Part shown: one piece after another, positions 3,130 through 21,340 of the stretch
Numbering within the stretch: position 1 is the first letter of the stretch
How the letters are laid out: every line of letters begins with the position of its first letter
Assembly (NCBI GenBank): GCA_048886185.1
Contig: JBHLKY010000025.1
Span: 21,125 to 53,124, forward strand
Direction: 5' to 3'
DNA: 32,000 nt
Source of the DNA: Candidatus Hermodarchaeota archaeon
GTDB taxonomy: Archaea; Asgardarchaeota; Heimdallarchaeia; Hodarchaeales; Hodarchaeaceae
Program-made: the position numbers and the translations under genes
The notes under the pieces: generated by a model
Seen by the model: only the letters and a program-made list of their open reading frames with translations
Database searches by the model: none
Told to the model about the DNA's origin: nothing

Positions 3130-3142
3130 TTTTTTTCTTCCT

Positions 3143-6097: not shown

Positions 6098-6556
6098 TTA
6101 TTTTTGCTTTAATATTTCTAATGCCTTTACAGCTCCAAGTATAATTGCTTCTGGTTTAGGTGGGCACCCTGGAACTTTGATATCAGTATTAACAAGATTA
6201 ACTACAGGAGCGCGAACAGAATACCCATCTTTAGCAAAAATACCTCCACTACACGCACATGTCCCAATTGCAACAACAACTTTCGGTTCTGGGACTTGAC
6301 TAACTACCCTCTTAAAGGATTCTACTAATTGTGCTGGAACAGTTCCAGTTACTAATAGAATATCACTATGGCGCGGATTATTCATTAATTTCATGCCAAA
6401 ACGTTCAATGTCATATCGGGGAGTAATACAAGCAGCAACTTCAATATCACAGCCATTACAACCACCACAAGGCATATGGTAAACCCAAGGAGACTTTTTC
6501 CGTGCCCACGAAATAATTTTATCAAGAGATCCGAAATTCTTCTTGTTTTTTATCAT
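6098..6556 (-). CDS. Group 4 [NiFe] hydrogenase small subunit (HycG/EchC/NuoB-like)
   Basis: SPW...CGGCNGCDIE, NPRHSDILLVTG, IGTCACSGG, VPGCPPKPE; GAGGT upstream. Confidence 0.93.
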   Translation of the reverse strand: MIKNKKNFGSLDKIISWARKKSPWVYHMPCGGCNGCDIEVAACITPRYDIERFGMKLMNNPRHSDILLVTGTVPAQLVESFKRVVSQVPEPKVVVAIGTCACSGGIFAKDGYSVRAPVVNLVNTDIKVPGCPPKPEAIILGAVKALEILKQK

Positions 6557-6567
6557 TAAATTCTACC

Positions 6568-7230
6568 TCAATGCCTTAAAGTGGCATAATCCATCACTAA
6601 AACGGATCCAGTTGCTTTATATTGCCCATTTATGACTGATACGAAAATTATAGCGATGAAAATCTGTAGTCCGTTTAGTATAATCGATATTGCTGGTGTC
6701 ACAAGACCAAGTGAATTGATTACAATATGTGCTCCATTTTGGATAGCCAATAAACCAACTCCTGTCTTAAAGAGATTATTCTCTGTAATCACTAGAGCAA
6801 AACCAAGAATCAAAATCATACTTCCCAAAGTAAGAACTGAAATTTCTATCTGAGAGGTTATTATAGTAGGAAAGACATTCATGATAACGAAATAGCAGGA
6901 TCCGAGAACAACGAGAAAGATTTCATAAACTACCATGGAAGAAAAGATCTTTCGGGTTGGTTCATTTGTAGTTTTATAAATACACACCCATAAGATACTA
7001 GCGGAAATGATGACTGAAAGAATTGTTACGATGTTGGATATCACATGAGGACTGATGATCAAGCTATTATCCTCCATCTCAAGGCTCAAATAAATATTGG
7101 AAAGTAATAAGGTAACTATCATCCAATAGAGGCTGTTAGTTGGTCGTTTAGCCTGGTAGGAGAAAATACCTGGTATATTAAGCATAAGGGCCATAAGTAG
7201 ATTTAATTGGAGAAATGCCATTATCAACAC
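6568..7230 (-). CDS. hyfE: HyfE-like (NuoJ/K-related) membrane subunit
   Basis: Several hydrophobic helices. C-terminal half NNLFKTGVGLLAIQNGAHIV...GSVLVMDYATLRH parallels HyfE (RNILRQIFGYCLMENGSHLV...GTLDVNNLTALKG, recalled from memory). Lies inside the hydrogenase operon. Confidence 0.7.
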   Translation of the reverse strand: MLIMAFLQLNLLMALMLNIPGIFSYQAKRPTNSLYWMIVTLLLSNIYLSLEMEDNSLIISPHVISNIVTILSVIISASILWVCIYKTTNEPTRKIFSSMVVYEIFLVVLGSCYFVIMNVFPTIITSQIEISVLTLGSMILILGFALVITENNLFKTGVGLLAIQNGAHIVINSLGLVTPAISIILNGLQIFIAIIFVSVINGQYKATGSVLVMDYATLRH

Positions 7231-7788
7231 CTAATACAGTTTTTTTATATGTAAACCTAATTCATTTGCTTTCATTTTACGACATTTTGGGCAGTAAAGA
7301 CGGGCTATTTCAAATTCATTACGAATGATTTTTCTCTTGTTCTCATCTATAATTGGTGTATCCTCGAGTTTCTTTTGTATCCAATCAAGATGTTTAATTG
7401 TTGCAAAAGATTCCTTACAGTTTTCACATAACTGCATATCAAGGATTATTATTAATTCAGAAGTATCCTGATCAGCTTGAACACTCATATCAAAAACCTG
7501 ACTCATTTCTAATGATTCTGTTGGACAGCTTTTTACACATGTTTCACAAAAAATACATGCTCCAGGATCATAATATAAATACCTTTTACTCTCATTATCA
7601 ACGAATTTATAAGCAAAGGAAGGACATACTTGTAAACAGGCACCACAGCCAATACATGTATCTTGGTCAAGCTGAACTTTACCCTTGAATCCTTTTGGTA
7701 AATGATCAGGCGGAGAAGCGGGAAATTTAGTTGTAGAAGGATTTAAGAATGATTTAAAGACCTCTACTACTGTTTTAATATTTGGCAT
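7231..7788 (-). CDS. 2x[4Fe-4S] hydrogenase subunit (HycF/NuoI-like) with C-terminal CxxC...CxxC metal site
   Basis: T-x-x-FP start motif (TTKFP), CIGCGACLQVCP, CIFCETCVKSCP, plus CENC and CPKC. Confidence 0.9.
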   Translation of the reverse strand: MPNIKTVVEVFKSFLNPSTTKFPASPPDHLPKGFKGKVQLDQDTCIGCGACLQVCPSFAYKFVDNESKRYLYYDPGACIFCETCVKSCPTESLEMSQVFDMSVQADQDTSELIIILDMQLCENCKESFATIKHLDWIQKKLEDTPIIDENKRKIIRNEFEIARLYCPKCRKMKANELGLHIKKLY

Positions 7789-7819
7789 ATGGGATTCTCC
7801 TTAAACTCTTGTTAAAATT

Positions 7820-8821
7820 TCAAATATTTGTAGTGATAACTAGTAAAAGTGGATCTACAAGTGCTAAAACAACAATGCTTGTGAGGACTATTTTAAATGC
7901 TTGATCTATTCTAAATCGTGGACTAATTGCATCAATGAAGCTTATTACAAAAACTAACCCAAAACATTTAATGAGAAAAACAATAATATTAAGAGGAACT
8001 TGAAGATTATTACCACCACCAAGGAAAATAAGTGTGAAAAGACCAGAAAAAGCAAACCACATAATATATTTTGTAACCACGATCAAACCTAGAAGAGCTC
8101 CACTGTATTCTGTGAGTGGGCCATCTATAATTTCCTGACGGGCCTCAACCATATCAAAAGGACGAATACCAAGCTTAACAATTAAACAAACCAGAACTGC
8201 GACGGCTGCGAATGGAAATTTAAAGATGAACCACATAGAATTGGTTTGTACCTCCTCAATTGCCGCAAAGTTGAAAGCACCGAGAATATTCTGTTGTAAC
8301 ATAAATAAGCTTGGTGTCAATAGAGCGAGGGCAAGTGGTAATTCAACCGCAATGATCATAGATCCCTCTCGACTTGCGCCAACTGTTGAAAATGGATTAC
8401 CTGAAGCTGTACCACCAATAATTAGTCCAATAGCTGGAAAGAGTAAGAATGTTATTACTAGGACTAGATCTCCGTACTCTAGCAATTCACCTAGTCCACT
8501 CAGAAATGATTCTCCAAGTAGTCTGATTGGAAAAAGAAGGCATACCATATATGCCCCTGTTAGAGCAATTAAGGGACCCAAATAAAAGTAAAAACGATTC
8601 GCTGTTACTGGTACTATCTGATCTTTAGAGAAAAGTTTGAGGAGATCACTCCAAGACTGGCTGAATGGGGGACCACGCCGAGATTGAAAACGAGCTATTA
8701 CCTTTCTGTTGAACCAGGACATTACTCCTCCAAAAAAGATGGCACCTATCAGGCCTGGGAAGATCAATATGTCAAATGTTAAATATATTAGATCAATCAG
8801 GATATTAATAATTTCACTCAA
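7820..8821 (-). CDS. Membrane subunit HycD/NuoH-like
   Basis: RKVIARFQSRRGP, DLLKLFSK, NPFSTVGASRE, PFDMVEARQEIIDGPLTEYSG, PRFRIDQ. Confidence 0.93.
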   Translation of the reverse strand: MSEIINILIDLIYLTFDILIFPGLIGAIFFGGVMSWFNRKVIARFQSRRGPPFSQSWSDLLKLFSKDQIVPVTANRFYFYLGPLIALTGAYMVCLLFPIRLLGESFLSGLGELLEYGDLVLVITFLLFPAIGLIIGGTASGNPFSTVGASREGSMIIAVELPLALALLTPSLFMLQQNILGAFNFAAIEEVQTNSMWFIFKFPFAAVAVLVCLIVKLGIRPFDMVEARQEIIDGPLTEYSGALLGLIVVTKYIMWFAFSGLFTLIFLGGGNNLQVPLNIIVFLIKCFGLVFVISFIDAISPRFRIDQAFKIVLTSIVVLALVDPLLLVITTNI

Positions 8822-10101
8822 GAATTCAACCTTCTAAAGTTTTTGATATTATTTTGAGCAAGTTCTCTTAACGAAAGTTGTTTTGTTTTATTTCCATTAA
8901 TATCTTTAATAAAAATCACTCGATCAGTACAGGAAAGACAAGGGTCGATGCTTCCAAAGATTATTGGTGCATCAGCAATAGTATATCCTTTTAACATTGA
9001 AGGAACGGCATAATTATTTATTAAAGATGGTGTCCTAATTCGTACTCTTTCAGGACAGGCTGTATCATTAGTAATAATATGATATGCTAATTCACCACGA
9101 GGAGGTTCGCTTTTGAATAAAGCTTCTATGCCACTTTCTATTGGTGGTAGACTCTCAAGTGCGATCTCATTACTTGAACTATCAGAGAGTTTATCCAAAC
9201 TTTGATCAATGATCGAAAGACTCTCAAAGAGCTCGTGAACACGGACGACTAATCGGGCGAGAACGTCACCATCCTTTTGAACACAGATTTTCCAATCAAG
9301 TTCATCATATGCCAAGATTGGACTGTCTTTTCTTGAATCAATGTTCAATCCAGAAGCCCTAGCTACTGGACCAACAACACCAAATCTCCGTGCATCATTA
9401 GAAGTAGTGACTCCTATACCTTTAAGGCGAGATTCTACTATTCGATCGGATAATGCTTGTGATGCGATATTACTAACTATTTTCTTAACTTCTCGTGTCA
9501 TTTTACGAATCTTAGGAATCAAATCATTCGGAATGTCCCGTCGGACGCCACCAATTGTCTGCATTCCATAATTGACCCTATTTCCAGAAATCAACTCCAA
9601 TAAATCCATCACAGCTTCACGATCACGCCAAGAGTGCATAAAAAGTGTCTCAAAACCTATTAAATCAGCTGCCACACCAAGCCATAGTAAATGGGAGTGC
9701 AATCGTTCTAATTCAAGAAAGATGGTTCTGATATATCGTGCTCGATCAGGAATTTCAGATTCTACTCCTAAAAGTCGTTCCACACAACCAGTATATGTAG
9801 TTGCATGATGATTGCTACAAATCCCGCAAACTCGTTCTGCTATGAATATATTGCGATTATAATTTCTTTTTTCCATAATATGTTGAATTCCTCTATGACT
9901 GAATCCAACTTTGATATTTGCCTCAATGATTGTTTCACCATCACAGTGGAGAGTTAAGAAAACTGGTTCAATCAATGCAGGATGGAATGGACCAATAGGA
10001 ACAGTTAAAACTCTTTTAATTTCTGAAGTGGGAATTTCTATTGGTTCTTGATTTTTCTTTGCGCTCATTCTCATCATCTCAGGATACTTTTGGCCATTCA
10101 T
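8818..10101 (-). CDS. Group 4 [NiFe] hydrogenase large subunit
   Basis: PIGPFHPALIEP, L1 ERVCGIC, EPPRGE, L2 DPCLSCTDR followed by a 33-aa extension. All four Ni-binding Cys are present. Start uncertain (10101 or the ATG ATG AGA ATG cluster just downstream). Confidence 0.95.
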   Translation of the reverse strand: MNGQKYPEMMRMSAKKNQEPIEIPTSEIKRVLTVPIGPFHPALIEPVFLTLHCDGETIIEANIKVGFSHRGIQHIMEKRNYNRNIFIAERVCGICSNHHATTYTGCVERLLGVESEIPDRARYIRTIFLELERLHSHLLWLGVAADLIGFETLFMHSWRDREAVMDLLELISGNRVNYGMQTIGGVRRDIPNDLIPKIRKMTREVKKIVSNIASQALSDRIVESRLKGIGVTTSNDARRFGVVGPVARASGLNIDSRKDSPILAYDELDWKICVQKDGDVLARLVVRVHELFESLSIIDQSLDKLSDSSSNEIALESLPPIESGIEALFKSEPPRGELAYHIITNDTACPERVRIRTPSLINNYAVPSMLKGYTIADAPIIFGSIDPCLSCTDRVIFIKDINGNKTKQLSLRELAQNNIKNFRRLNS

Positions 10102-10507
10102 ATGGAAGAATCAATCGGTAAGGAGTAGGATGACCTATGAACTCAACTCCTACCATTTCACAAATTTCTCTCTCAAAAAAATTTGCTGCAGGAATCAATG
10201 GAGTAATCGATTTAATTGAAGAATTATTTGCTGGAATCCAAGTCCGTAATATAACAATAAAATTTTTTAGAATCTTTTCTAGGGAAAAGATATACATTAA
10301 CTCAATTTTATTGAATTGAATACGTGAAGCATTGATTGTAACAAGTCTAGCTTTTTGTTGAGTAAATAAATATGAAGGAACATGAGCTATACCCGATGAT
10401 TTGATTTCCACTCCATATTGGTGGGGTTGTACCTCCCAGTATTTAATAAAATCAGGTCCGCATTCTGTTTTGATTGCTTCAAGTGTTTCTTTAACAATAC
10501 TATCCAT
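10079..10507 (-). CDS. NuoC/EchD/MbhK-like hydrogenase subunit
   Basis: SITPLIPAANFFEREICEMVGVEFIGHP...RLILPYEW. Start moved from the track's 10561 to ATG 10507, which has GAGGTGA upstream. Confidence 0.88.
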   Translation of the reverse strand: MDSIVKETLEAIKTECGPDFIKYWEVQPHQYGVEIKSSGIAHVPSYLFTQQKARLVTINASRIQFNKIELMYIFSLEKILKNFIVILRTWIPANNSSIKSITPLIPAANFFEREICEMVGVEFIGHPTPYRLILPYEWPKVS

Positions 10508-10515
10508 AAAATATC

Positions 10516-10522
10516 TCACCTC
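10516..10522 (-). promoter_or_regulatory. Shine-Dalgarno GAGGTGA overlapping the stop codon of the antiporter-like gene
   Basis: Plus-strand TCACCTC at 10516-10522, 8 nt upstream of ATG 10507. Confidence 0.6.
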
Positions 10523-12401
10523 AAGCAAGTAAAACAATAGTTGCGAGAAGTATAGTTGCACCAGCTGTTATATACCAAAGATAAGAAGTTAATCGCCCCG
10601 AATGGAAAAATTTGAAAAAATTGAGAATGGGTTTTGAAGCAAATTCAAATGGTGATGAGGGGACATATATCTGGCCTAACGACAGATAAGGAGGATCATA
10701 AAGGCCTCCTGTGAATGGAAGATTTGTTGAAGAAGATGTCCTTATAGTTTCATAACTAGGAGTTTCTCTAATTGTCGGTTTTCTGCCTGATACACGGTAC
10801 AAAAGTAAACCAAAAATTAATCCAATAAGAATCAAAATTGTCGCTGAAATTGGTGAATAAACTCCCGAAATTGTCTCTTGAACCAAGATATTAGGCCAAG
10901 CACTAATAACAAATTCTTCTCCAGGTAAAAATACTGCAATACCAGGACTAACAAAGTTATTTATTATAAAATCGGGAATTACTCCTACGACTAGACAGCT
11001 AACTGAAAGTATGATCATTGGAATCGTCATTGACTTAGGAGATTCATGAATTTCGTCAAATGGAGGAAGATCAAGGTTTGGATTAATGCCAAAGAAAACT
11101 GAACTTAATAATTTCAAGAATAACACAAGAGTTAACGCTGAAACTAGAATAGCGACAATTGCATATTCAGGATGATTTGCTTCAAAAAACGCCTCATAAA
11201 GGATTCGTTTACTAGTATAACCCCCAAAAGGTGGTATACCTGAAATACTAAGACTAGCAACAACCATGGAAATCGTTGTCAATGGCATTCTTGCAGCAAT
11301 TGAGCCTAGTTTATCAATATCACGTGCTCCAGTCGAATGTTCAACGCTCCCTGCGCCCAAAAAGAGTAAACCTTTAGAAGCGGAGTGAGTAAACATATGA
11401 TATAAAGCAGCCGCTAACCCAAAAGCGGTTCCTAACGAAAAACCAATTAAAATATAGCCGATTTGTGAAACATTACAGTAAGCAAGCATACGTTTCAGAT
11501 CATTCTGTGCAAGAGCCATGATGTTGCCAATAACCATTGTTAGTATTCCAACTCCCGAGAGAAGAAATCCAATGTTCAAGAAAGATGTAGATGAAAAAAC
11601 ACTCGACAATGAATTGATGATCTTATATAACACGATAAATACCGTATATTCGGCAACAATAATCTTTCCACCAGATAAAAGAACGCTAGTGGTCACAGGT
11701 GCCTCTGAATGAGCGTCTGGAAGCCAAAAATGAAATGGAAATGCTGCAGCTTTGGTTGAAAGACCAATAAAGACTAAAGCTATCGCTACCTTCATTTCAA
11801 ATAACGAACTGGTCTGATCCCAATTGATCTCACTTAGAATAAACGTTCCAGTGACATTTTCAATGATAAATATCCCCAGAATTGTAAACACGGATGTGAA
11901 AATTGTTATGATGAGATATTTCATTGTAGCCTCTTTTGCTTCGGGTCTCCTTCCCAAACTCACGAGAATAGCGGATGTAATGGTTGTAGATTCCATAAAG
12001 ATAAATATCCAAAGTAAATTTTCCGTAAGAACAAGAAGAACCATGGATGCGATAAATAGCATGCTAAAGAAGTAATGCCAGCGGATTTGGGTTATTTGAT
12101 AAGAATAAGAGAAAATCATTGTTAAAAAACCTAAGAAAATTGGAATAAATATCACAAAGAGAGCAATTGGATGGAAATTAAACACAAATGGGAGATCATA
12201 AAAAGGAAATTCTAATCGAAAAGGTTCAGTATTAAATATCATAAGATAACTAATGCATCCAACCATAATTAATGTGATAAGACTCGAAAAAACAGTAGTG
12301 AGTTTTCTAGATATTAGAGATATAGGTAAAACCAGTATTGCTGCAACAATTGGTAGAATTAAAACAATTTCTCCTACTAACTCCATTACTGGATCTATCA
12401 T
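10521..12401 (-). CDS. Antiporter-like membrane subunit (NuoL/HycC/MrpA-D family)
   Basis: IFMEST (TM5 Glu), TKAAAFPFHFWLPDAHSEAP, ALAQNDLKRMLAY, HSASKGLLFLGAG, SISGIPPFGGYTSK. Confidence 0.93.
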   Translation of the reverse strand: MIDPVMELVGEIVLILPIVAAILVLPISLISRKLTTVFSSLITLIMVGCISYLMIFNTEPFRLEFPFYDLPFVFNFHPIALFVIFIPIFLGFLTMIFSYSYQITQIRWHYFFSMLFIASMVLLVLTENLLWIFIFMESTTITSAILVSLGRRPEAKEATMKYLIITIFTSVFTILGIFIIENVTGTFILSEINWDQTSSLFEMKVAIALVFIGLSTKAAAFPFHFWLPDAHSEAPVTTSVLLSGGKIIVAEYTVFIVLYKIINSLSSVFSSTSFLNIGFLLSGVGILTMVIGNIMALAQNDLKRMLAYCNVSQIGYILIGFSLGTAFGLAAALYHMFTHSASKGLLFLGAGSVEHSTGARDIDKLGSIAARMPLTTISMVVASLSISGIPPFGGYTSKRILYEAFFEANHPEYAIVAILVSALTLVLFLKLLSSVFFGINPNLDLPPFDEIHESPKSMTIPMIILSVSCLVVGVIPDFIINNFVSPGIAVFLPGEEFVISAWPNILVQETISGVYSPISATILILIGLIFGLLLYRVSGRKPTIRETPSYETIRTSSSTNLPFTGGLYDPPYLSLGQIYVPSSPFEFASKPILNFFKFFHSGRLTSYLWYITAGATILLATIVLLA

Positions 12402-12408
12402 AGTGTCA

Positions 12409-13236
12409 TTACCTCTGAAGTTTTATACGATGTTCCTCTAATCCAATGTCTTTTTCATCAAATCCAAATGATAAAGCAACCAATTCAGTGAGATGCATGA
12501 TTGGAAGGTCATAAATTTCTTTATTCCGTTTTAATAACAATTGTGTGTTTTCAAATTGTCTGAAACACGCTGGACAAGAAACTGCAATGATATCAGCTCC
12601 AACTAATTTAACACTTATCAATTTATTCCTTGCTCGTTCCATTATTGCCCAATCTTCATCAGTGTAAAGAGCTGGAGTACCACAACACATTTTTTCCAAA
12701 CCATACTGAACAATTTGAGCACCTGTCACACGAACAACTTCATCAAAAAGCGAGGGGAGGTTTCTCTCTTGCAATCGACAACCATAATGGCAAGCAACCT
12801 TAATATCGCTAAGAGGATTGGTTATATAATTCTTAATACGATCAATGCCTATTCTTGTTGCCAGAAATTCAGCTATTGGAAATATCCTGACATTTCCTTC
12901 GTAATTCAGCTCTAATACTTTTAACTTTTCATTTACCTTTGTAAGTTGGTTCTCATCCTTTAAAACATGATTTGCATGGCTCAAACTATGATAACAACCA
13001 TTACAAAATGTTACCATATCATTAATACCATATTGCTCAGACAAGGCAAGGTTTACACTTGAAATCAGAAGGGCTGTTTCAGAATCTAATCTTCGTGTAA
13101 GATCATTCTCAGGACAGCATGTAGCTTCTTCTATTTCTCTTAGTAAAGTTCCTAATCTTTTAAATACTACCCGAGCCGATTTTTCGACGAAAGGTTGATT
13201 GGTAGGAATATTACACCCCCAGAAAGAATTAAACAT
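12409..13236 (-). CDS. hdrB: Heterodisulfide reductase subunit B-like protein (two CCG domains)
   Basis: FWGC...TCCP...CNGC and HYGC...MCCG...CPAC; C-terminal LPIMHLTELVALSFG...IGL..H. Confidence 0.9.
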   Translation of the reverse strand: MFNSFWGCNIPTNQPFVEKSARVVFKRLGTLLREIEEATCCPENDLTRRLDSETALLISSVNLALSEQYGINDMVTFCNGCYHSLSHANHVLKDENQLTKVNEKLKVLELNYEGNVRIFPIAEFLATRIGIDRIKNYITNPLSDIKVACHYGCRLQERNLPSLFDEVVRVTGAQIVQYGLEKMCCGTPALYTDEDWAIMERARNKLISVKLVGADIIAVSCPACFRQFENTQLLLKRNKEIYDLPIMHLTELVALSFGFDEKDIGLEEHRIKLQR

Positions 13237-13496
13237 TATTCCTCACCAACTAGTTTTTTAAGCCGTTCACCCTGTAACAATTTTTCAATGTACTTTGTTG
13301 ATTCCTTCCTCTCAGGAAGCCCTATTTTCTCCCTTTTCTTCTCAATCCTTTGATTTGAAATAACAAAATATCCATTTTGTACCAATGATTTGGCATTAGA
13401 AAACATAGTCTTTGGAATTTGATTTAATTTAGATTCCGAACGAAGAGGATAGAGTGGGATGGTTTCTACCTTTTCAGGACTAGATTTTTGGGTCAT
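13236..13496 (-). CDS. hdrC: Truncated HdrC-like protein: C-terminal helical half only, no Fe-S cysteines
   Basis: SLVQNGYFVISNQRIEKKREKIGLPE...IEKLL...KKLVG resembles the HdrC C-terminus (consensus from memory: FVIKTGHxVPIN...LRKxxGLxE...VQKII...DxLIG). Has its own AGGAGA RBS and a TAATG overlap with hdrB. Confidence 0.62.
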   Translation of the reverse strand: MTQKSSPEKVETIPLYPLRSESKLNQIPKTMFSNAKSLVQNGYFVISNQRIEKKREKIGLPERKESTKYIEKLLQGERLKKLVGEE

Positions 13497-13506
13497 CAGC
13501 TTATAT

Positions 13507-13512
13507 TCTCCT
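13507..13512 (-). promoter_or_regulatory. Shine-Dalgarno AGGAGA for the mini-HdrC ORF
   Basis: Plus-strand TCTCCT at 13507-13512, 10 nt upstream of ATG 13496. Confidence 0.55.
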
Positions 13513-13514
13513 AT

Positions 13515-14906
13515 CTAATTAACAGGGGGTGCCTTTGGAATGAACCCTTTGTCCATAAGTAAGAGTGTTTGTTCCCTTGCTCTTTTGATAAGGTTTTCAG
13601 CGCGTTCAAATGCTTCCTGAGGAGTTAATTTCAATCGTGCACCTCCTTCCTTGATTGCTTGTTGTCCTACTGCAACAGCTTCTCTGGGGAATACCTCCCA
13701 CTCATCCATAGACGGTACAATATAGTCAGGGGTCAGTTCTTTGTCTTCTGCTGTTTTAGCCAATTCTTTTGCTGCAGCAATGCACATACTATCTGTGATC
13801 GTGATTCCCATCACATCTAGTGTTCCACGGAAGATTCCAGGAAATCCTAAGCTGTTATTCACCTGATTTGGAAAATCAGATCGTCCTGTAGCTATTATAA
13901 TAGCTCCAGCTTCTTTTGCTTCCCAGGGCCATATTTCAGGCACAGGATTCGCGCAAGCAAATACAATAGGCTCATCCGCCATTGCTTGAATCCACTCTGG
14001 TTTTATTGTTCCAGGTCCAGGTTTGCTGGCCGCGATTACAATGTCAGTGTCTTTCATTCCCTCTAGTACATCCCCTTCTCTGCCCTCGCTATTAGAGTTA
14101 ATGCACATATCCCACTTCAAGTCATAGATATTCTTTTTTTGTTCAATATCATGTCTTTCAGGGTGTAAAATCCCTTTAGAATCCATCATAATGACATTCT
14201 TCTTAGGAATACCTGCAGCTTCCATAACTCTAACAACAGCCATATTAGCTGCCCCTGCTCCAACCATGGAAAAAAGTGTCTCATCTAATTTTTTATTTAC
14301 ATATTTTAAAGCGTTAAATACAGCGGCAATAATTATAGTTGCAGTACCTTGTTGATCATCATGCCATACTGGTATTCGAACATCTCTAGCATTACGCAAG
14401 CTATCAAGAATCTTGAAGCATTTGGGTTGAGAAATATCTTCTAGATTGATTCCACCAAAAGTAGGTTGAAGCCATTTTACTGCTGCAATAATTTCATCGG
14501 CATCATGACAATCTAAGCAAACAGGAAAGGCATCAACTCCTCCTAAATATTTAAACAGTAATGCTTTGCCCTCCATAACTGGCATCGCAGCTTCAGGGCC
14601 TATATTACCCAATCCTAGAACCCTACTTCCATCAGAAACAACTGCAACATTATTCCACTTATTTGTCAATTCGTATGCAGTGAATGGTCTGAACTTCTTT
14701 GTAACCTTTATTTCTTCTTCGATAATTCTGCAAGGCCTTGCTACTCCTGGGGTGTACCAAACAGCAAAATCATCAAAATTATCAATTTTAACTTTCGAGA
14801 CGACCTCAATTTTTCCTCGATAGAAAGGATGCCATGCTTCAGCTCGACGGTTTGGAAGGTCTGCTTTTTTAAGTAGTTCTTCAACATTAACTTTTTCTTT
14901 TGCCAT
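13515..14906 (-). CDS. NAD(P)-dependent malic enzyme (archaeal type)
   Basis: YTPGVA, VAVVSDGSRVLGLGNIGP, MEGKALLFK, INLEDISQPKCF, HDDQQGTA, GAGAA, ANPVPEI, ATGRSDFPNQVNNSLGFPGIFRG. Confidence 0.96.
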   Translation of the reverse strand: MAKEKVNVEELLKKADLPNRRAEAWHPFYRGKIEVVSKVKIDNFDDFAVWYTPGVARPCRIIEEEIKVTKKFRPFTAYELTNKWNNVAVVSDGSRVLGLGNIGPEAAMPVMEGKALLFKYLGGVDAFPVCLDCHDADEIIAAVKWLQPTFGGINLEDISQPKCFKILDSLRNARDVRIPVWHDDQQGTATIIIAAVFNALKYVNKKLDETLFSMVGAGAANMAVVRVMEAAGIPKKNVIMMDSKGILHPERHDIEQKKNIYDLKWDMCINSNSEGREGDVLEGMKDTDIVIAASKPGPGTIKPEWIQAMADEPIVFACANPVPEIWPWEAKEAGAIIIATGRSDFPNQVNNSLGFPGIFRGTLDVMGITITDSMCIAAAKELAKTAEDKELTPDYIVPSMDEWEVFPREAVAVGQQAIKEGGARLKLTPQEAFERAENLIKRAREQTLLLMDKGFIPKAPPVN

Positions 14907-14936
14907 AAGTTAAAACTCCTTGTCAAATCTTTCAAT

Positions 14937-15422
14937 TCATACTCTTATGTTTTCCATTATTCTTAATACTTCAGTACGAGGCAGAAAACGAATTGCCTCA
15001 ACCGAACACACATCGACACACTGGGGATCACCATCACATAAATCACATTTATAGCTTAGATGAGTTTCAGGGTGAAACCAAGCAATACTCAAAGAACAAG
15101 CAAAGGTACAACTACGACAACCTATACACATTAACTCATTTAGAAAAACACGTCCATTTGCTTCCTTCTGAATTGCTCCACTTGGACAAACAATTTGACA
15201 AGGAGCTGGATCACAATGGATGCAAAGGGCAGCAGAAAATACTAAATGAGTACTTTCTTCCCCTTGTTTGAAAACTATTTTTGAACTGATTGTAATATTA
15301 CTCAAATTAAAGCTTAGTTGACAATGATGGTGTAAAGAGCAAGCAGATTCACAGTATCTGCATCCTGTACACTTTTCATCATCAAAAAATAAAACTTTAT
15401 CCTCAGCTATAGGAGATTTCAT
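14937..15422 (-). CDS. 4x[4Fe-4S] electron-transfer protein (HycB/CooF/DmsB family)
   Basis: CTGCRYCESAC, CIHCDPAPCQIVCP, CIGCRSCTFAC, KCDLCDGDPQCVDVC. Confidence 0.92.
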   Translation of the reverse strand: MKSPIAEDKVLFFDDEKCTGCRYCESACSLHHHCQLSFNLSNITISSKIVFKQGEESTHLVFSAALCIHCDPAPCQIVCPSGAIQKEANGRVFLNELMCIGCRSCTFACSLSIAWFHPETHLSYKCDLCDGDPQCVDVCSVEAIRFLPRTEVLRIMENIRV

Positions 15423-15735
15423 AGAACTCTCTTCTTACTAACCGAATACTATACATTAAAATCCTTAGATTGATGTAATAATAGTTAATTAAATGTTTAA
15501 AATTTTAATTAAAAGGATTTGCATGTTAATTTTTGACTATTTTAAGATAATGATGTAAGTACTTTCTTGACACCGTAAAGAGATTCCAAATTGAGAGTCG
15601 TTGATTTTGTCTTCTTTTCAGAAATTTTGGTCTGCCTTTGCTAGGTAGTTAGGAATTGTAAATAAATGAAAAAAAGGAGTAGCAGCCCATTTATGATAAA
15701 AAATAAGAAATCTAACAAAAAACACATCAGTAAGA

Positions 15736-16236
15736 GTGATTGAGATTTTGACATTCTTAGAAGAATTATCCGAGTTTATACAGGAAGGTCGTCGTCATAA
15801 ATTATCAATCTTTTGCATTGGTAATGTCCTTAAAGGCGATGATGCCTTGGGCCCCATTATTGCAAAAAAACTACAAGGACAGATTTCATCAGACGTTTTA
15901 TTGTTTGATACGGGTTCACAACCTGAAAATTTTATTACTGAACTTAGAAGAAATAATATATCACATTGTTTAATGATTGATGCTCTGGAATTTAAAGGTA
16001 AACCTGGGAATATTGGTTTTTTTGACCCAACTGAGGTGAGTGATTTTTATGGAACATTCTCAACCCATTATCTTTCAATGAAATCTTTGATAGATTTTAT
16101 GATACAACAAACAGGTAGTAAATTCAGGATACTTGGTATTCAACCATTGACCTTAGAAATCGGTAAACAAGTCTCCACTCCTGTTCAAAACTCAATTGAA
16201 AGATTAATTAAACTATTGAAACAACTTCTTGAATAG
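15736..16236 (+). CDS. hycI: Hydrogenase maturation protease, HycI-like
   Basis: CIGNVLKGDDALG, GSQPENF, IDALEF, STHYLSM, ILGIQP. Confidence 0.88.
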   Translation: MIEILTFLEELSEFIQEGRRHKLSIFCIGNVLKGDDALGPIIAKKLQGQISSDVLLFDTGSQPENFITELRRNNISHCLMIDALEFKGKPGNIGFFDPTEVSDFYGTFSTHYLSMKSLIDFMIQQTGSKFRILGIQPLTLEIGKQVSTPVQNSIERLIKLLKQLLE

Positions 16237-16728: not shown

Positions 16729-17892
16729 ATGAGTGAATCTTCAAGGTATTTAATACCAAATTTAGAGTTTCGAAAAAGAATTGTCCAAATGTCTCAAGAG
16801 AACCTCAATTTCTGTTATCAGTGTTCTAATTGTACTGGAATCTGTCCTTTAAATATGGTATCCTCATTTAACCCTAGGGAACTCATTCATTTAGGGCAAA
16901 TTGGTTTAGAATTAGAACATTCAGAGGTTGAGAAACTCTGGCGTTGTACAACATGTGCAGCTTGTGAAAGCATGTGTCCTAAAGAAGTAAAGATTATCGA
17001 TATAATTACAGCACATCGATCTCAAGCGGTAGAAATTGGGGAAAAAATTCCTTATACCTATACACAGACTTTACAATCTTTTTATACATATGGAAATCCA
17101 TTTAATTTAAGATCTGCCGAACGTGCCGATTGGGCAAAGGGTCTAGATGTACCTGTTGCGAAAAAAGGAACTGATATTCTTTACTTTGTTGGATGTACTG
17201 CATCTTACGATCCTAGATCTCAAAAAATAGCTCGTGCCTTATCAGCGATTTTTAAACATGCAAAACTGAATTTTGGTATCGCAGGTAAGGATGAAAGAGA
17301 ATGTGGCAATTGTATTAATTTTATGGGTGAATCATTATTAAGTGATTTTGAAAGGGAAAGAAATGAGAAAATAATTCAAGAAGTTCAGCCCTCAATTATC
17401 GTTACTACCTCACCCCATTCGTTTAACTTCTTTAAAACGAGGTATAATCTTCCAGAACATTCTAACGTGTATCATTACACTCAATTTTTAGATGAACTCA
17501 TAAAAGATGGCAGACTTGAACTAGAAAAATCGTTACCAGACACAACTGTAACTTACCATGATGCCTGTTATCTAGGAAGGCATAATGATGTTTATGATGA
17601 ACCTCGAAGAGTCTTAAAGGCGATTCCTGGTTTAAAATTGGTGGAAATGAAAAATAATCGTCAATTAGGCATATGTTGTGGCGGTGGAGGTGGAAATGTC
17701 TGGGCTGAAACTAATGTTGAAGAACGGCTTTCCATACCAAGACTGAATGAAGCACTAGAAGTAAATGCAACAATCTTGGCTTCAGCATGTTATTTCTGCT
17801 TAACAATGTTTGAAGATGCAAGAAAAGTGACAAATCATGAACAAGATATAGAAACGAAGGATATAGCTGAAATAGTTGCCGATGTTCTGTGA
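16729..17892 (+). CDS. hdrD: HdrD-like Fe-S oxidoreductase (2x[4Fe-4S] plus CCG domains)
   Basis: CYQCSNCTGICP, CTTCAACESMCP, GNPF, YFVGC, YHDACYLGR, ICCGGGGG, ACYFC. Confidence 0.85.
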   Translation: MSESSRYLIPNLEFRKRIVQMSQENLNFCYQCSNCTGICPLNMVSSFNPRELIHLGQIGLELEHSEVEKLWRCTTCAACESMCPKEVKIIDIITAHRSQAVEIGEKIPYTYTQTLQSFYTYGNPFNLRSAERADWAKGLDVPVAKKGTDILYFVGCTASYDPRSQKIARALSAIFKHAKLNFGIAGKDERECGNCINFMGESLLSDFERERNEKIIQEVQPSIIVTTSPHSFNFFKTRYNLPEHSNVYHYTQFLDELIKDGRLELEKSLPDTTVTYHDACYLGRHNDVYDEPRRVLKAIPGLKLVEMKNNRQLGICCGGGGGNVWAETNVEERLSIPRLNEALEVNATILASACYFCLTMFEDARKVTNHEQDIETKDIAEIVADVL

Positions 17893-17908
17893 TTTAAACT
17901 AAGAAGAG

Positions 17909-19897
17909 ATGATAATAATGGAAACTGGACGAATAGGAGTCTTTATTTGTCATTGTGGTACAAATATAGCTGGAAAAATATCTATTGAGAAATTAAAGAA
18001 TTTTGCTAAAACTCTTCCACACGTGGTAACTGCTAGTGATACCACATATACATGCAGTGAGGTAGGCCAGGCTTCGATTCAAGATGCTATTAGTGAACAT
18101 AAACTTACGCATGTTGTTGTAGCTGCATGTTCCCCAAGTATGCACGAAAAAACATTTCGTAGTACTATTGAAAAAAGTGGCCTGAATCCTTACATGTTAG
18201 CGATTGCTAATATCCGCGAAATGAACACTTGGGTTACTGAGGATTCAGAAGAAAGTTTAGAAAAGGCTAAAAAGATAGTAGCTGCGGCTGTGAGGAGAGT
18301 TATTAATCATGAAGCATTAGTGGAAGACAAGCTTGCTGTTACCCCACGAATTGTCGTTGTCGGTGCAGGTATTGCTGGAATAGAGGCCTCGCTCCAACTG
18401 GCAAACGCTGATAAGGAGGTTATTTTAGTTGAACGAGAGCCATCAATAGGTGGCCAAATGGCTCGATTTGATAAAACTTTTCCAACATTAGATTGTGCCT
18501 CATGTATTCTTACTCCAAAGATGGTTGAGGTTGGACAACATCCAAACATTAACCTAATGACCTATAGTGAAGTGGAGGATTTTTCAGGTGTTCCAGGTCA
18601 ATATAATGTTAAAATTCGAAAGAAAGGTAGATCCATTGATGAAGAATTATGTACAGGGTGCGGAATTTGTGAAGAGAAATGTCCTATTAAAAGAATACCA
18701 AGCGAGTTTTATATGGGACTTAGAAATAGAAAAGCTGTTTATCGGCCTTTTCCGCAAGCTGTACCCCAGTACCCTGTTATCGATCGGGAAAATTGCACCT
18801 ATTATTTAAAAGGGAAATGTAGGATATGTGAAAAGGAGTGTCCAACTGGAGCTATTGCTTTTGATCAAGAGGATACAATAGTAGAGATCGAAGCAGGAGC
18901 CATCATCTTAGCCACTGGTTATGAACCATACAATCCTTCAAACATTACCCAATATCGTTATGGAGAGTACGATAATGTTTTTCGAGAAATAGAAGTTGAG
19001 ACAATGCTTAATGCTTCTGGTCCGACTGGTGGTGAGTTTCTACTTCGAAAGGATGGACAGTTTACTGAGGAGTCCCCAAAATCCGTCGGAATTATTCATT
19101 GTGTTGGTTCAAGAGATGCGAACTATAATCCTTATTGTTCGCGAGTCTGTTGCATGTATTCTTTAAAATTTGCCCATTTAATTAAAGAACGAACCGATGC
19201 AGCGATATTCCAATTCTATATCGATATTAGAGCATTTGGTAAGGGTTATGAAGAGTTCTATGATCGTCTACAAAAGGAAGGAGTGGTTTTCATCCGAGGT
19301 AAACCTGGGAAGATTTTAAAAGATAAAGATAAACTTATTGTACAAGTAGAAGACTCTCTGTCTCAAAAAGCATTACATGTCCCAGTTGATGCAGTAATTC
19401 TAAGTAGTGCGATAGTAGCACGTCCTGATGCACGTCAAGTGGCAAGCATGTTTGGTATAGGATGTGGAGCTGAAGACTTTTTCCGAGAACTTCATCCAAA
19501 ATTAGCTCCTGTAGATACCCAAGTTGATGCAATATTTTTAGCGGGAGCGTGTCAGGGGCCAAAAGATATTCCTGATGCTGTTGCACAAGGGGCAGCTGCC
19601 GCAGCAGGAGCTCTAAGACTGATATCCCGTGGTCATATTGCGATTGAACCAACTATTGCATCAATAGACGAAGACCTATGCTCCAATTGTAAGATGTGTA
19701 TATCAATTTGCCCCTATGATGCTATTGCTGAAGATACAGAGAAAAAAGTTGCTGTTTTAACTGCATCCAAATGTAAAGGGTGTGGTCTCTGTCCTTCCAT
19801 ATGTCCCTCTGGCGCTATTCATCATGCGTTCTATTCCGATGAAGCAATTTTGTCAGAAATTAAAGGGATTATTGAAACAGCTCAGTTGAAAGGGTGA
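17909..19897 (+). CDS. hdrA: Heterodisulfide reductase subunit A
   Basis: IGVFICHCG, VVGAGIAG, DKTFPTLDCASC, inserted ferredoxin, HCVGSRD, YCSRVCCM, GPKDIPDAV, C-terminal CSNCKMCISIC and CKGCGLCPSIC. Confidence 0.96.
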   Translation: MIIMETGRIGVFICHCGTNIAGKISIEKLKNFAKTLPHVVTASDTTYTCSEVGQASIQDAISEHKLTHVVVAACSPSMHEKTFRSTIEKSGLNPYMLAIANIREMNTWVTEDSEESLEKAKKIVAAAVRRVINHEALVEDKLAVTPRIVVVGAGIAGIEASLQLANADKEVILVEREPSIGGQMARFDKTFPTLDCASCILTPKMVEVGQHPNINLMTYSEVEDFSGVPGQYNVKIRKKGRSIDEELCTGCGICEEKCPIKRIPSEFYMGLRNRKAVYRPFPQAVPQYPVIDRENCTYYLKGKCRICEKECPTGAIAFDQEDTIVEIEAGAIILATGYEPYNPSNITQYRYGEYDNVFREIEVETMLNASGPTGGEFLLRKDGQFTEESPKSVGIIHCVGSRDANYNPYCSRVCCMYSLKFAHLIKERTDAAIFQFYIDIRAFGKGYEEFYDRLQKEGVVFIRGKPGKILKDKDKLIVQVEDSLSQKALHVPVDAVILSSAIVARPDARQVASMFGIGCGAEDFFRELHPKLAPVDTQVDAIFLAGACQGPKDIPDAVAQGAAAAAGALRLISRGHIAIEPTIASIDEDLCSNCKMCISICPYDAIAEDTEKKVAVLTASKCKGCGLCPSICPSGAIHHAFYSDEAILSEIKGIIETAQLKG

Positions 19898-19903
19898 TAC
19901 AAG

Positions 19904-20362
19904 ATGAGTTCAGAAGAAACTAATGGTTTTAATCCAACTATTATAGGTTTTTACTGCCGGTGGTGCACCCATGCAGCCGCAGATCTAGCTGGAACCTCTC
20001 GAATTCCAGTTTCAGCAAATATCATTGGAATTCGCGTCCCATGTTCTGGCCGTGTTGACCCTACCTTCATTTTTGATGCATTTACTAAGGGTGCGGATGG
20101 TGTTCTAATTGGTGGGTGCCACCTTGGTGATTGCCATTATGAAGAAGGGAATTTTAGTGCTTTTAAGAGGACTAAAATCCTGCAAAAAGTAATACAAGAA
20201 TTCGGTATAGAACCTGAACGTGTACGCATTGAATGGATTTCTGCGTCCGAAGCCAATAAGTACCAAAAAACTCTCAAAGAGTTCACTGAAACAATTAAAG
20301 AGCTGGGACCCCTAAATTGGGATAAACATTTACAAGAAAGGGATTATGAAATATCAGTGTGA
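19904..20362 (+). CDS. mvhD: Methyl-viologen-reducing hydrogenase delta subunit ([2Fe-2S])
   Basis: GFYCRWC..AADLAG, RVPCSGRVDP, GADGVLIGGCHLGDCHY, WISASE. Confidence 0.96.
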   Translation: MSSEETNGFNPTIIGFYCRWCTHAAADLAGTSRIPVSANIIGIRVPCSGRVDPTFIFDAFTKGADGVLIGGCHLGDCHYEEGNFSAFKRTKILQKVIQEFGIEPERVRIEWISASEANKYQKTLKEFTETIKELGPLNWDKHLQERDYEISV

Positions 20363-21339
20363 CGGTGATTATGATGAGTGAAGAGAAAGCAAAAGTAGCA
20401 TTTTACTGGGCAGCCTCATGTGGAGGTTGTGAAATTGCTGTTTTAGACTTGGATGAAGCTGTACTTGATGTAGCTGCAAAAGCAGACATTGTTTTCTGGC
20501 CTGTTGCTGTAGATACAAAATATCATGATGTTGAAGCAATGGCAGATAACTCAATTGATGTTACATTTTTCAATGGAGGTATAAGAAATTCTGAAGCAGT
20601 ACATGTAGCCAAACTTCTGCGGAAAAAATCAAAATTTCTTGTAGCTTTTGGAACCTGTGCGCACTGCGGTGGGGTTCCTGCTCTTGCCAACTTTAAAACT
20701 AAAGACGCCATTTTCGAACGCGTTTATAAAACAACACCCAGTACAAATAATCCTGAAGGAATTTATCCTCAAACTTCTCATAAAACAAGAGAAGGAGAAG
20801 TAACGATTCCTAAATTTCTTGATGCTGTTTATCCTCTTGATGCAGTAGTTCCAGTCGACTATTATGTTCCTGGATGCCCTCCCCCTAAGAAATGGATCTT
20901 AGCTGGAGTGACAGCTTTCCTAACAGGAGAGCTTCCTCCAAAAGGGTCAGTTATTGCAGAAGAATATGCTCTCTGTAAAGAATGTCCAAGAGAAAAACCA
21001 GAAAAACATTCTGTGAAAGAATTCAAGAGAGTTTGGGAAGTGATGGACATTGATTTTCAGAAGTGCTTATTAGATCAAGGGATTATTTGTTTAGGACCTG
21101 CCACTCGTGGGGGTTGTGAAGCACGTTGTATAACAACAAACTATCCCTGTCGCGGATGCTTTGGACCAGCTCCTAAAATCATTGATATGGGTGCTAAAAT
21201 GATCAGTGTTTTAGGTTCTATCATTGATGAGAAAGATGAAACAAAAATGGAACAGATTGTCGAAGACATCCCAGATCTTGCTGGGACATTATATGAATTT
21301 ACTGCAGGAAGATCAGTTTTCTTAAGGAGGAAAAAGTGA
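20359..21339 (+). CDS. mvhG: Group 3c [NiFe] hydrogenase small subunit
   Basis: ASCGGCE, GTCAHCGG, VPGCPP, LCKECP, ICLGPATRGGCEARC, PCRGCFG. Confidence 0.95.
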   Translation: MTVIMMSEEKAKVAFYWAASCGGCEIAVLDLDEAVLDVAAKADIVFWPVAVDTKYHDVEAMADNSIDVTFFNGGIRNSEAVHVAKLLRKKSKFLVAFGTCAHCGGVPALANFKTKDAIFERVYKTTPSTNNPEGIYPQTSHKTREGEVTIPKFLDAVYPLDAVVPVDYYVPGCPPPKKWILAGVTAFLTGELPPKGSVIAEEYALCKECPREKPEKHSVKEFKRVWEVMDIDFQKCLLDQGIICLGPATRGGCEARCITTNYPCRGCFGPAPKIIDMGAKMISVLGSIIDEKDETKMEQIVEDIPDLAGTLYEFTAGRSVFLRRKK

Positions 21340-21340
21340 A

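Follow-up and report, generated by a model that had tools for sequence, protein, structure and literature searches.

The window, as we call the whole 32,000-nucleotide stretch that was analyzed, comes from a Hodarchaeales (Asgard) archaeon and carries 11 tightly packed genes, all on the minus strand, at positions 6098 to 15422. We confirmed the coordinates and strand of these genes, which the preliminary description had reported as co-oriented with short gaps, and Pfam and NCBIfam confirmed the subunit set, backing every gene assignment except those of an 86-aa ORF and a 220-aa membrane protein. The first gene, fdx4 (14937..15422), encodes a 161-aa HycB/HydN-type ferredoxin with four [4Fe-4S] motifs (Pfam Fer4_11 and others). 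It is followed by genes for a malic enzyme (13515..14906; 463 aa; Pfam malic and Malic_M), the 86-aa ORF, which resembles the C-terminal tail of HdrC (13236..13496), and an HdrB-type subunit (12409..13236; 275 aa; two Pfam CCG domains). Next come a single antiporter-like membrane subunit of the NuoL/M/N, MbhH, HycC type (10521..12401; 626 aa; Pfam Proton_antipo_M, 9e-57; NCBIfam matches, NuoM, Mrp D, and HyfB), a NuoC-like subunit (10079..10561; 160 aa from a GTG start; Pfam Complex1_30kDa, 1.3e-18), and the [NiFe] large subunit (8818..10101; Pfam Complex1_49kDa and NiFeSe_Hases). The operon ends with a NuoH/HycD/MbhM-like membrane subunit (7820..8821; 333 aa; Pfam NADHdh, 3.3e-65), a HycF/NuoI-like subunit with two [4Fe-4S] motifs (7231..7788; 185 aa; Pfam Fer4_7 and others; NCBIfam formate hydrogenlyase Fe-S subunit, 6.6e-28), the 220-aa polytopic membrane protein (6568..7230), and a NuoB/HycG-like small subunit (6098..6556; 152 aa; Pfam Oxidored_q6, 1.8e-31). 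In this order, the intergenic gaps are 30, 18, -1, 7, -41, -23, -4, 31, 0, and 11 nt.

Both nickel-binding motifs of the large subunit, L1 (RVCGICSNHH) and L2 (DPCLSCTDR), are intact as first described, and L2 is followed by a cleavable 33-aa C-terminal extension. The divergent HycI-like protease is also borne out: a HycI-type maturation endopeptidase (15736..16236, plus strand; Pfam HycI, 8e-16) adjoins the operon here and has the same position in G021, G006, and GCA_976602785.1. HypD is encoded in this genome. The 220-aa membrane protein had been called HyfE-like. We found no Pfam match and no solved relative for this copy, but one of six orthologues (L116) matches NuoK (PF00420; 2.8e-6), and the position of this gene is constant across all related operons. 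These comparisons suggest that the protein is probably NuoK/HyfE-like.

The 86-aa ORF, whose gene overlaps hdrB at TAATG, has no Pfam match and only a weak match to TIGR03290 (C-terminal part of HdrC; E, 5e-4). A profile of this tail matches the C-terminal half of genuine 165- to 175-aa HdrC proteins (E down to 1e-8) and of the solved HdrC chains 7bkb_C, 8rvu_c, 9sfi_E, and 5odc_C. The tail, earlier named mini-HdrC, has zero cysteines and no Fe-S cluster, and the five orthologues that we read also lack cysteines. We propose that the tail is a clamp for HdrB and not an electron carrier. Long NuoC proteins have a C-terminal extension with which the tail shares homology (hhalign probability, 95.7; E, 9.6e-9); among NuoC proteins, only the long forms match.

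Both CCG motifs of HdrB, which would bind two non-cubane [4Fe-4S] clusters, are complete, and the cluster cysteines are invariant throughout the family in the relatives that we aligned. We propose that HdrB would be the disulfide-reducing site of the complex. In fdx4, 16 invariant cysteines make up the four cluster motifs, and its closest relatives among solved structures are four-cluster subunits of the HycB type, among them FHL HycB (7z0s_B) and HDCR HycB3/4. This protein is our proposed electron wire between HdrB and the HycF-like subunit. Multimer prediction had been suggested at the outset. When we modeled fdx4 against HdrB plus the tail, we obtained a score of 0.78 (best of three controls, 0.00; of 80 solved complexes, 58 reach the docking mark, as do 2 of 110 mismatched pairs), which may partly reflect likeness to solved HdrB-HdrC, since fdx4 has an N-terminal ferredoxin fold similar to the ferredoxin domain of HdrC. 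The docking runs shared at least 56% of contacts, with a partner pLDDT of at least 84. In the model, the first cluster motif of fdx4 (residues 17 to 30) lies against HdrB residues 177 to 193, around Cys184 and Cys185. The model supports docking of fdx4 on HdrB.

We found that the hdrB-tail-hydrogenase gene set, whose conservation in relatives had been left as a question, is not absent from them but recurs at more than 15 other loci in at least six archaeal lineages. This recurrence argues that the arrangement is not due to chance. The series of fdx4, Cys-free tail, HdrB, and core hydrogenase set is present in Hodarchaeota (L034, L035, and L117), at L116 and L118, and in other Asgard families (L141 and L142). 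The set with an unfused tail also occurs in Methanomethylicia (L119, the published Ehd) and in Hermodarchaeota (L120 and L131-L139), and the version with the tail fused to NuoC occurs in two lineages, Nezhaarchaeales (L121) and Bathyarchaeia (L039, L040, and L043). In a FastTree tree, the HdrB-adjacent large subunits all fell on one side of a single branch (support, 96; 19 linked versus 77 unlinked), with those of Hodarchaeota in a long-branched subclade of their own. IQ-TREE gave the HdrB-linked large subunits an SH-aLRT of 95 and placed Escherichia coli HycE outside, which excludes Hyc/Hyf (group 4a) membership. The resemblance to the Hyc/Hyf core proposed earlier therefore holds for architecture, and among solved proteins HycE is the closest to the large subunit (E, 7.6e-80), but the large subunit is not group 4a by phylogeny.

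The preliminary description did not know this arrangement as a characterized enzyme, but an HdrB-linked membrane hydrogenase design is already predicted in print, from genomes, for other archaea (Ehd/Ehe/Ehg and Drh [PMC9723716] and Asgard 4l/4q [bioRxiv 10.1101/2024.07.04.601786]). Ehd of Methanomethylicia and "Ehd-like" clusters were named by Borrel et al. 2019, according to Kohtz et al. 2022 (PMC9723716). The latter describe Ehd, Ehe (Culexarchaeia), Ehg (Nezhaarchaeia), and Drh (Methanocellales) as "HdrB-interacting group 4 hydrogenases" and put forward for Ehd-type complexes the same function as we propose here. Expression of an Ehg complex has been reported for a Methanonezhaarchaeon in culture (PMC12700198). 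Checked on L119, the present operon shares with Ehd the HycB-like ferredoxin, an 85- to 94-aa Cys-free HdrC tail, HdrB, NuoC, the large subunit (in the same clade), one antiporter-like subunit, NuoH, the HycF-like subunit, the small membrane protein, and the small subunit. In contrast to Ehd, the antiporter gene precedes nuoC here rather than following the large subunit gene, a malic enzyme gene is inserted, and the large subunit is only ~49% identical to its Ehd counterpart. The host also differs, being a non-methanogenic archaeon; we found no Mcr in this genome, which is 96% complete. CoM-S-S-CoB thus cannot be taken for granted as the substrate, which probably is another disulfide.

Like E. 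coli formate hydrogenlyase (Hyc, group 4a; PDB 7Z0S), the operon has a HycB-type ferredoxin to link a soluble catalytic partner to HycF, HycG, and HycE, a membrane part with one antiporter-like and one NuoH-like subunit, and HycI-type maturation. Unlike that enzyme, its partner is HdrB instead of the molybdoenzyme FdhF, NuoC is separate, and there is an extra small membrane subunit. HdrB is ~38% identical to that of MvhADG-HdrABC (PDB 5ODC and 8RVU) and keeps all cysteines of both non-cubane clusters, and in that system HdrB is embraced by the part of HdrC to which the tail is homologous. In contrast to that soluble system, this operon lacks HdrA, flavin, and the HdrC ferredoxin domain, and the hydrogenase that serves as electron partner belongs to group 4 and is membrane bound, whereas that of the soluble system is group 3c.

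We consider it fairly probable that the operon encodes an Ehd-type complex, an ion-translocating membrane group 4 [NiFe] hydrogenase with an HdrB module on its peripheral arm. Synteny across lineages, the single side of the tree, the NuoC-tail fusions, and the fdx4-HdrB docking model all point to this flavin-free H2:disulfide reading and agree with the original idea that HdrB replaces the usual redox partner. Electrons would pass from the [NiFe] site of the large subunit to the [4Fe-4S] cluster of the small subunit, to the two clusters of the HycF-like subunit, to the four clusters of fdx4, and finally to the two non-cubane clusters of HdrB. HdrB would stand where FdhF does in what is otherwise the architecture of formate hydrogenlyase. 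HdrC would be split, its ferredoxin domain functionally replaced by the HycB-like protein and its C-terminal arm kept as the clamp tying HdrB to the arm, probably near NuoC. The thermodynamically favorable direction would be from H2 to disulfide, with ion export coupled through the NuoH-like subunit, the single antiporter-like subunit, and the small membrane protein.

CCG-domain proteins also serve quinone-like carriers and organic acids (SdhE, GlcF, LutA, and GlpC), and HdrB could act on such a nonthiol substrate, perhaps with a link to the malate/pyruvate node via the malic enzyme, which would be co-transcribed. Its score against TIGR03288 is 216 bits, under the NCBIfam equivalog cutoff of 345 bits, the runner-up among its NCBIfam families is the fumarate-reductase anchor SdhE, and its substrate-site loops are unlike those of methanogen HdrB, with different residues following the HYGC motif and the second CC motif. 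Pointing the same way are the missing Mcr and the presence within the operon of the sole malic enzyme gene of the genome (single tblastn match). However, the full-length alignment to solved HdrB (E, 7e-51) outscores SdhE-type models (1e-30), and both non-cubane cluster motifs are complete. Furthermore, the malic enzyme listed in the preliminary description is inside the operon only in this genome and is not a conserved member. In the three other readable Hodarchaeota loci (G021, G006, and GCA_976602785.1), the HdrC-tail gene comes directly after fdx4, and the gene for malic enzyme lies outside the operon, within ~5 kb; it is absent from the flanks read in other lineages. Recurrent neighbors elsewhere are thiol related (a CoA-disulfide-reductase/Nox-family flavoprotein and, at one locus, GcvH plus lipoate ligase). 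We regard a nonthiol substrate as unlikely.

The classical partner of HdrB is HdrA, reached through HdrC, and an HdrD-like, HdrA, MvhD, MvhG, MvhA operon (16729..22825, plus strand; Pfam) begins 1.3 kb away on the opposite strand. Its predicted products are a soluble group 3c hydrogenase and a bifurcating Hdr, and HdrA/MvhD-type genes adjoin the cluster in all four Hodarchaeota loci. HdrB and the tail might therefore be merely co-located with an ordinary ferredoxin-oxidizing, H2-evolving Mbh/Ech-like enzyme and serve soluble MvhADG-HdrA. In contrast, the Mvh/HdrA operon encodes an HdrD-like protein of its own, in which ferredoxin and CCG domains are fused, and the tail cannot wire HdrB to HdrA because it has no cysteines. 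The module is also kept in Hermodarchaeota and Methanomethylicia operons with no hdrA in the flanks read, and Methanomethylicia reportedly lack HdrA (PMC12054007). Together with the tail-NuoC fusions and the linkage of HdrB that follows large-subunit phylogeny, this makes co-location quite improbable. For the Ehd-type complex, the neighboring operon is a probable partner in the same thiol/disulfide economy. The original phrase "without flavin bifurcation" thus suits the operon itself, but because the HdrA-containing operon adjoins, the system probably does not work in isolation from the cell's bifurcating Hdr chemistry.

In principle, group 4 hydrogenases can work in both directions (Ech and Eha/Ehb), and the complex could run mainly in reverse, an ion gradient driving electrons from the thiol pool, ultimately reduced by malic-enzyme NAD(P)H or Hdr systems, to H2 as a redox valve in a fermenting, H2-releasing Asgard cell. 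We doubt this strongly: although malic enzyme would be co-transcribed here, electron flow from thiol to H2 is steeply uphill in energy with every common thiol couple (about -140 to -300 mV, versus -414 mV for H+/H2), and no sequence feature signals direction. Asgard metabolism is, on the side of such reversal, widely modeled as H2 producing, with "reverse flow" (bioRxiv 10.1101/2024.07.04.601786); a revised CoM-S-S-CoB potential is cited in PMC12054007.

In Asgard groups 4l/4q, Mbh-like membrane hydrogenases bear a "peripheral heterodisulfide reductase domain" (Appler et al., bioRxiv 10.1101/2024.07.04.601786), and the Hermodarchaeota-type operons (L120 and L131-L139) share their gene set with the operon described here. 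That study assigned Hdr-bearing complexes to the deep-branching classes Asgardarchaeia, Baldrarchaeia, Hermodarchaeia, and Odinarchaeia and Complex-I-like hydrogenases instead to Heimdallarchaeia, including Hodarchaeales. Within the genus, we found the cluster to be patchy, in 3 of the 22 genomes sampled, this one included, and it is therefore not core metabolism. The Hdr-bearing complex would thus be present also in some Hodarchaeota.

The eleven open reading frames (ORFs) between positions 6098 and 15422 are co-oriented on the minus strand, with intergenic gaps of -41 to +31 nt in the ORF listing. Using Pfam and NCBIfam, we found that the first gene, fdx4, encodes a 161-aa multi-cluster ferredoxin and that it is followed by a malic enzyme gene (13515 to 14906, minus strand; 463 aa, malic and Malic_M domains), a gene for an 86-aa protein that has no Pfam match and weakly matches the C-terminal third of HdrC (the HdrC tail), and hdrB (275 aa, two CCG domains). 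The remaining genes encode an antiporter-like subunit (626 aa, Proton_antipo_M), a NuoC-like subunit (160 aa, Complex1_30kDa), the large subunit (427 aa, Complex1_49kDa and NiFeSe_Hases), a NuoH-like subunit (333 aa, NADHdh), a HycF/NuoI-like protein with two [4Fe-4S] motifs (185 aa), a small membrane protein of 220 aa for which we found neither a Pfam match nor a solved relative, and a NuoB-type small subunit (152 aa, Oxidored_q6). A hycI gene (15736 to 16236) is divergent from the operon. Thus, the order, strand, tight spacing, and subunit set of the preliminary description are confirmed, and a complete group 4 core (small, NuoC-, NuoH-, and NuoI/HycF-like subunits and at least one antiporter-like subunit) lies in one cluster.

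The large subunit has both [NiFe]-binding CxxC motifs, L1 (RVCGICSNHH) and L2 (DPCLSCTDR), whose four Cys are conserved without exception in alignment A1, and a 33-residue tail after L2 of the type cleaved by HycI; HypD is also present in the genome. The hdrB gene sits inside the hydrogenase cluster; it shares 1 nt with the tail gene and stops 7 nt ahead of the antiporter gene. Its product has two complete CCG motifs (C8, CC40/41, CxxC78/81, C153, CC184/185, and CxxC221/224), and fdx4 has four motifs with 16 invariant Cys. The sequencing runs that carry this sequence are all DNA, from sediment or estuary metagenomes, with no RNA run among them. A promoter and terminator scan returned counts at chance level and, being of the bacterial type, is uninformative for an archaeal host.

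The preliminary description had suggested comparing gene order in relatives. Using HdrB as the query, we found an orthologue in only 2 of 21 same-genus genomes (G021 and G006; 77% and 68% identity); the remaining HdrB genes in those 21 genomes are paralogues, about 35% identical, that adjoin full-length HdrC genes. In both orthologue genomes and in a further Hodarchaeota assembly, GCA_976602785.1, the order fdx4, tail, hdrB, antiporter, nuoC, large subunit, nuoH, hycF, membrane protein, small subunit is kept, with hycI divergent. Outside Hodarchaeota, too, we found this gene set with a Cys-free ORF of 85 to 94 aa ahead of hdrB: on a Logan contig (L116; large subunit 60% identical), on a hydrothermal-vent contig (L118), in Methanomethylicia (L119), and in Hermodarchaeota (L120). 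Eleven additional Asgard loci have this set. A profile of the tail matched in 14 of 400 Asgard genomes (3 of 22 of this genus, 9 of 19 of one other family, and two singletons), and a library of 1.84 billion cluster representatives gave only about 40 matches at an E value of ≤1e-3, several of them repeat-rich giants. The proteins closest to those of the window are labeled Candidatus Hodarchaeota or Hodarchaeum.

The malic enzyme, which had been counted as part of the operon, is not a conserved member of it. By tblastn it is the sole malic enzyme gene in the 4.84-Mb genome. In G021, G006, and GCA_976602785.1, fdx4 is followed directly by the tail gene, with no malic enzyme between them. In G021 and GCA_976602785.1, the two with long enough flanks, malic enzyme genes are found no more than about 5 kb away but outside the operon, namely, two on the far side of hycI in G021 and a single one on the opposite strand, next after the small-subunit gene, in GCA_976602785.1. 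Because the gene is missing between fdx4 and the tail in these relatives and, where the flanks are long enough, lies outside their operons, we regard it as a genome-specific insertion. Its proximity in the relatives may reflect co-regulation or merely the shared ancestry of close relatives.

We placed the large subunit among group 4 hydrogenases, as had been proposed, and found that it groups with HdrB-linked enzymes. In a FastTree phylogeny of 215 large subunits (19 with an adjacent hdrB, 77 without, and the others of unknown context), every HdrB-linked sequence fell on one side of a single branch with a support of 96. An IQ-TREE analysis of 69 sequences under LG+C20+F+G4, to which Escherichia coli HycE was added, recovered the same split with an SH-aLRT of 95; both trees are unrooted, and kin are over-represented in them. 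The HdrB-free comparison set came from a contig scan with the large-subunit alignment, in which the matches listed were mostly bacterial group 4 enzymes of 40 to 50% identity. The Hodarchaeota sequences make up a subclade with a long branch, adjacent to one that contains Methanomethylicia, Bathyarchaeia, and Hermod- and Odin-type sequences. We concluded that the operon is a slightly rearranged member of the Ehd type, one of the published HdrB-interacting group 4 hydrogenases, in an order in which such a complex has not been highlighted.

The tail is not the Fe-S protein or electron carrier that the name "mini-HdrC" had implied, as its 86 residues include no Cys. It matches only positions 79 to 135 of the 144-position HdrC model. 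A profile built from six tails matches residues ~95 to 155 of genuine Hodarchaeota HdrC proteins of 165 to 175 aa, with E values down to 1e-8, and the last ~60 residues of the solved HdrC chains 7bkb_C, 8rvu_c, 9sfi_E, and 5odc_C, with E values of 0.013 to 0.4. Judged from these matches to the C terminus of both genuine and solved HdrC, the tail corresponds to the HdrC C-terminal arm minus the ferredoxin domain. In Bathyarchaeia (L039, 1505 to 2170; L040; L043) and Nezhaarchaeales (L121, 7462 to 8118), there is no free tail gene, and NuoC has an extension of about 80 residues that is homologous to the free tail (hhalign probability, 95.7; E value, 9.6e-9). Short NuoC proteins gave no hhalign match to the tail profile. 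The tail and nuoC are thus fused genes in these lineages, which links the HdrB clamp to the hydrogenase and provides independent genomic evidence that this clamp is part of the hydrogenase peripheral arm.

Of the multimer prediction suggested in the preliminary description, we modeled HdrB with the tail and the ferredoxin, scoring on the ferredoxin and including three controls. The ferredoxin docked on HdrB with a score of 0.78, and the best of the controls scored 0.00. Of 80 solved complexes, 58 reach the pass mark, as do 2 of 110 mismatched pairs; likeness to the HdrB-HdrC interface of solved structures may account for part of the pass here. Runs agreed in at least 56% of contacts, with a partner pLDDT of at least 84. 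In the model, the first cluster motif of the ferredoxin (residues 17 to 30) lies against HdrB residues 177 to 193, around Cys184/185. These data support binding of the ferredoxin to HdrB as modeled. The NuoC-tail fusion in relatives and the docking model are indirect evidence that HdrB may be physically attached to the hydrogenase.

Among solved structures, fdx4 is best matched by four-cluster subunits of the HycB type, formate hydrogenlyase HycB among them, and the large subunit by HycE (7z0s_E) and MbhL (6cfw_L). The proposed layout would be that of formate hydrogenlyase with HdrB replacing FdhF: the HycB-type polyferredoxin would take over the wiring, here as in the whole family, and HdrC would contribute only a clamp. 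We rejected a CoB-CoM heterodisulfide reductase of the HdrABC or HdrBC kind: HdrB scored below the equivalog cutoff (TIGR03288, 215.9 bits against 345.15; NF041780, 87.5 bits against 450), the Cys-free tail is no two-cluster HdrC, and McrA (PF02249) was not found in the 96%-complete genome, in which positive controls were recovered. Since that search did not find McrA, we concluded that the organism is not a methanogen. We also rejected a formate hydrogenlyase or Hyf (group 4a) identity, as HycE is placed with bacterial enzymes that lack an HdrB link, apart from the clade of the window's enzyme; a molybdopterin formate dehydrogenase was likewise not found in the Pfam scan, whose ORFs ran from 2701 to 31449 and took in the whole operon.

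HdrA is encoded next door. A complete operon for HdrD-like, HdrA, MvhD, MvhG, and MvhA proteins (16729 to 22825, plus strand) begins 1.3 kb from the Ehd-type operon, after hycI. About 2 kb past mvhA, across an M28 peptidase gene, is a second, weaker HycI/FrxA-like protease gene (24825 to 25292, minus strand). Two hdrB paralogues lie upstream on the same contig within 30 kb (contig positions 5652 to 6473, 27% identity, and 15118 to 15963, 34%), and Hdr-type redox modules appear to form an island on this contig. Downstream of the Ehd-type operon, beyond an HTH regulator gene (4652 to 5734), are a glutamate dehydrogenase family gene (3143 to 4375, minus strand) and a 150-aa ORF with no Pfam match (2701 to 3153, minus strand).

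Elsewhere, a four-gene soluble hydrogenase cluster (Fer4_22, NAD_binding_1/DHODB_Fe-S_bind, and small and large subunits) adjoins the Ehd-type operon of three lineages other than Hodarchaeota (L116, 1150 to 5170; L119, 2912 to 6850; L120, 2819 to 6850) and looks like a group 3b sulfhydrogenase. In Hodarchaeota, in contrast, the neighbor is a group 3c Mvh hydrogenase. A 456-aa flavoprotein of the CoA-disulfide reductase/NADH oxidase family adjoins the cluster in Hermodarchaeota-type (L120, 14678 to 16048; L131 to L135 and L138, ~1440 to 2970), Nezhaarchaeales (L121, 2902 to 4275), and one vent (L118, 7777 to 9147) operon. Copies are 41 to 45% identical between lineages and carry the single-Cys motif EYSRCGLPY, which places them in that family and not with lipoamide dehydrogenase; the CxxxxC motif of Lpd was present only in the L116 neighbor. 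In L121, the flavoprotein is accompanied by GcvH, lipoate-protein ligase, and radical-SAM genes. For those lineages, these neighbors hint at what the thiol/disulfide substrate may be. The window's operon has no such gene beside it. GcvH, Lpd-like, CoADR-like, and LplA genes do occur in its genome, none of them near the operon.

Electron flow from H2, at -414 mV, to any common disulfide is exergonic, and the predicted complex is therefore most economically read as an ion-pumping H2:disulfide oxidoreductase. The potential of CoM-S-S-CoB has been revised to -281 mV (as cited in PMC12054007). The HdrB loops near the active site are unlike those of methanogen HdrB. It is also conceivable, and we think rather unlikely, that in Hodarchaeales the Ehd-type complex and the divergent MvhADG-HdrA-HdrD system form one thiol/disulfide loop around a non-methanogenic disulfide carrier. 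The soluble complex would confurcate electrons from reduced ferredoxin and thiols to H2, the membrane complex would re-oxidize part of this H2 with the disulfide while pumping ions, and the malic enzyme would feed the redox pool. Hodarchaeales are the closest sampled archaeal relatives of eukaryotes, and if true, such a loop would be a new, split form of energy conservation from fermentation in a lineage that serves as a model for the archaeal host of eukaryogenesis.

The interpretation in the preliminary description is thus partly supported: its H2:disulfide oxidoreductase mechanism was right in outline, but its claim of a new arrangement does not hold. Kohtz et al. (2022; PMC9723716) described HdrB-interacting group 4 hydrogenases from genomes (Ehd, Ehe, Drh, Ehg, and Ehd-like clusters of Bathyarchaeia) and proposed this function for them. 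Expression of an Ehg complex has been reported for a Methanonezhaarchaeon in culture (PMC12700198). In deep-branching Asgard classes, Appler et al. (bioRxiv 10.1101/2024.07.04.601786) reported groups 4l and 4q, which carry a peripheral heterodisulfide reductase domain, and they described the hydrogenases of Heimdallarchaeia, including Hodarchaeales, as Complex-I-like. Our details refine this published idea and do not define a new system. They extend the Ehd-type family to Hodarchaeota and sharpen the structural hypothesis, in that across the family the so-called HdrC would be only a Cys-free clamp, fused to NuoC in some lineages. We know of no HdrB-linked membrane hydrogenase that has been purified or assayed, and thus any intact example, this one included, could be the first on which a flavin-free, ion-pumping H2:disulfide oxidoreductase is tested biochemically.
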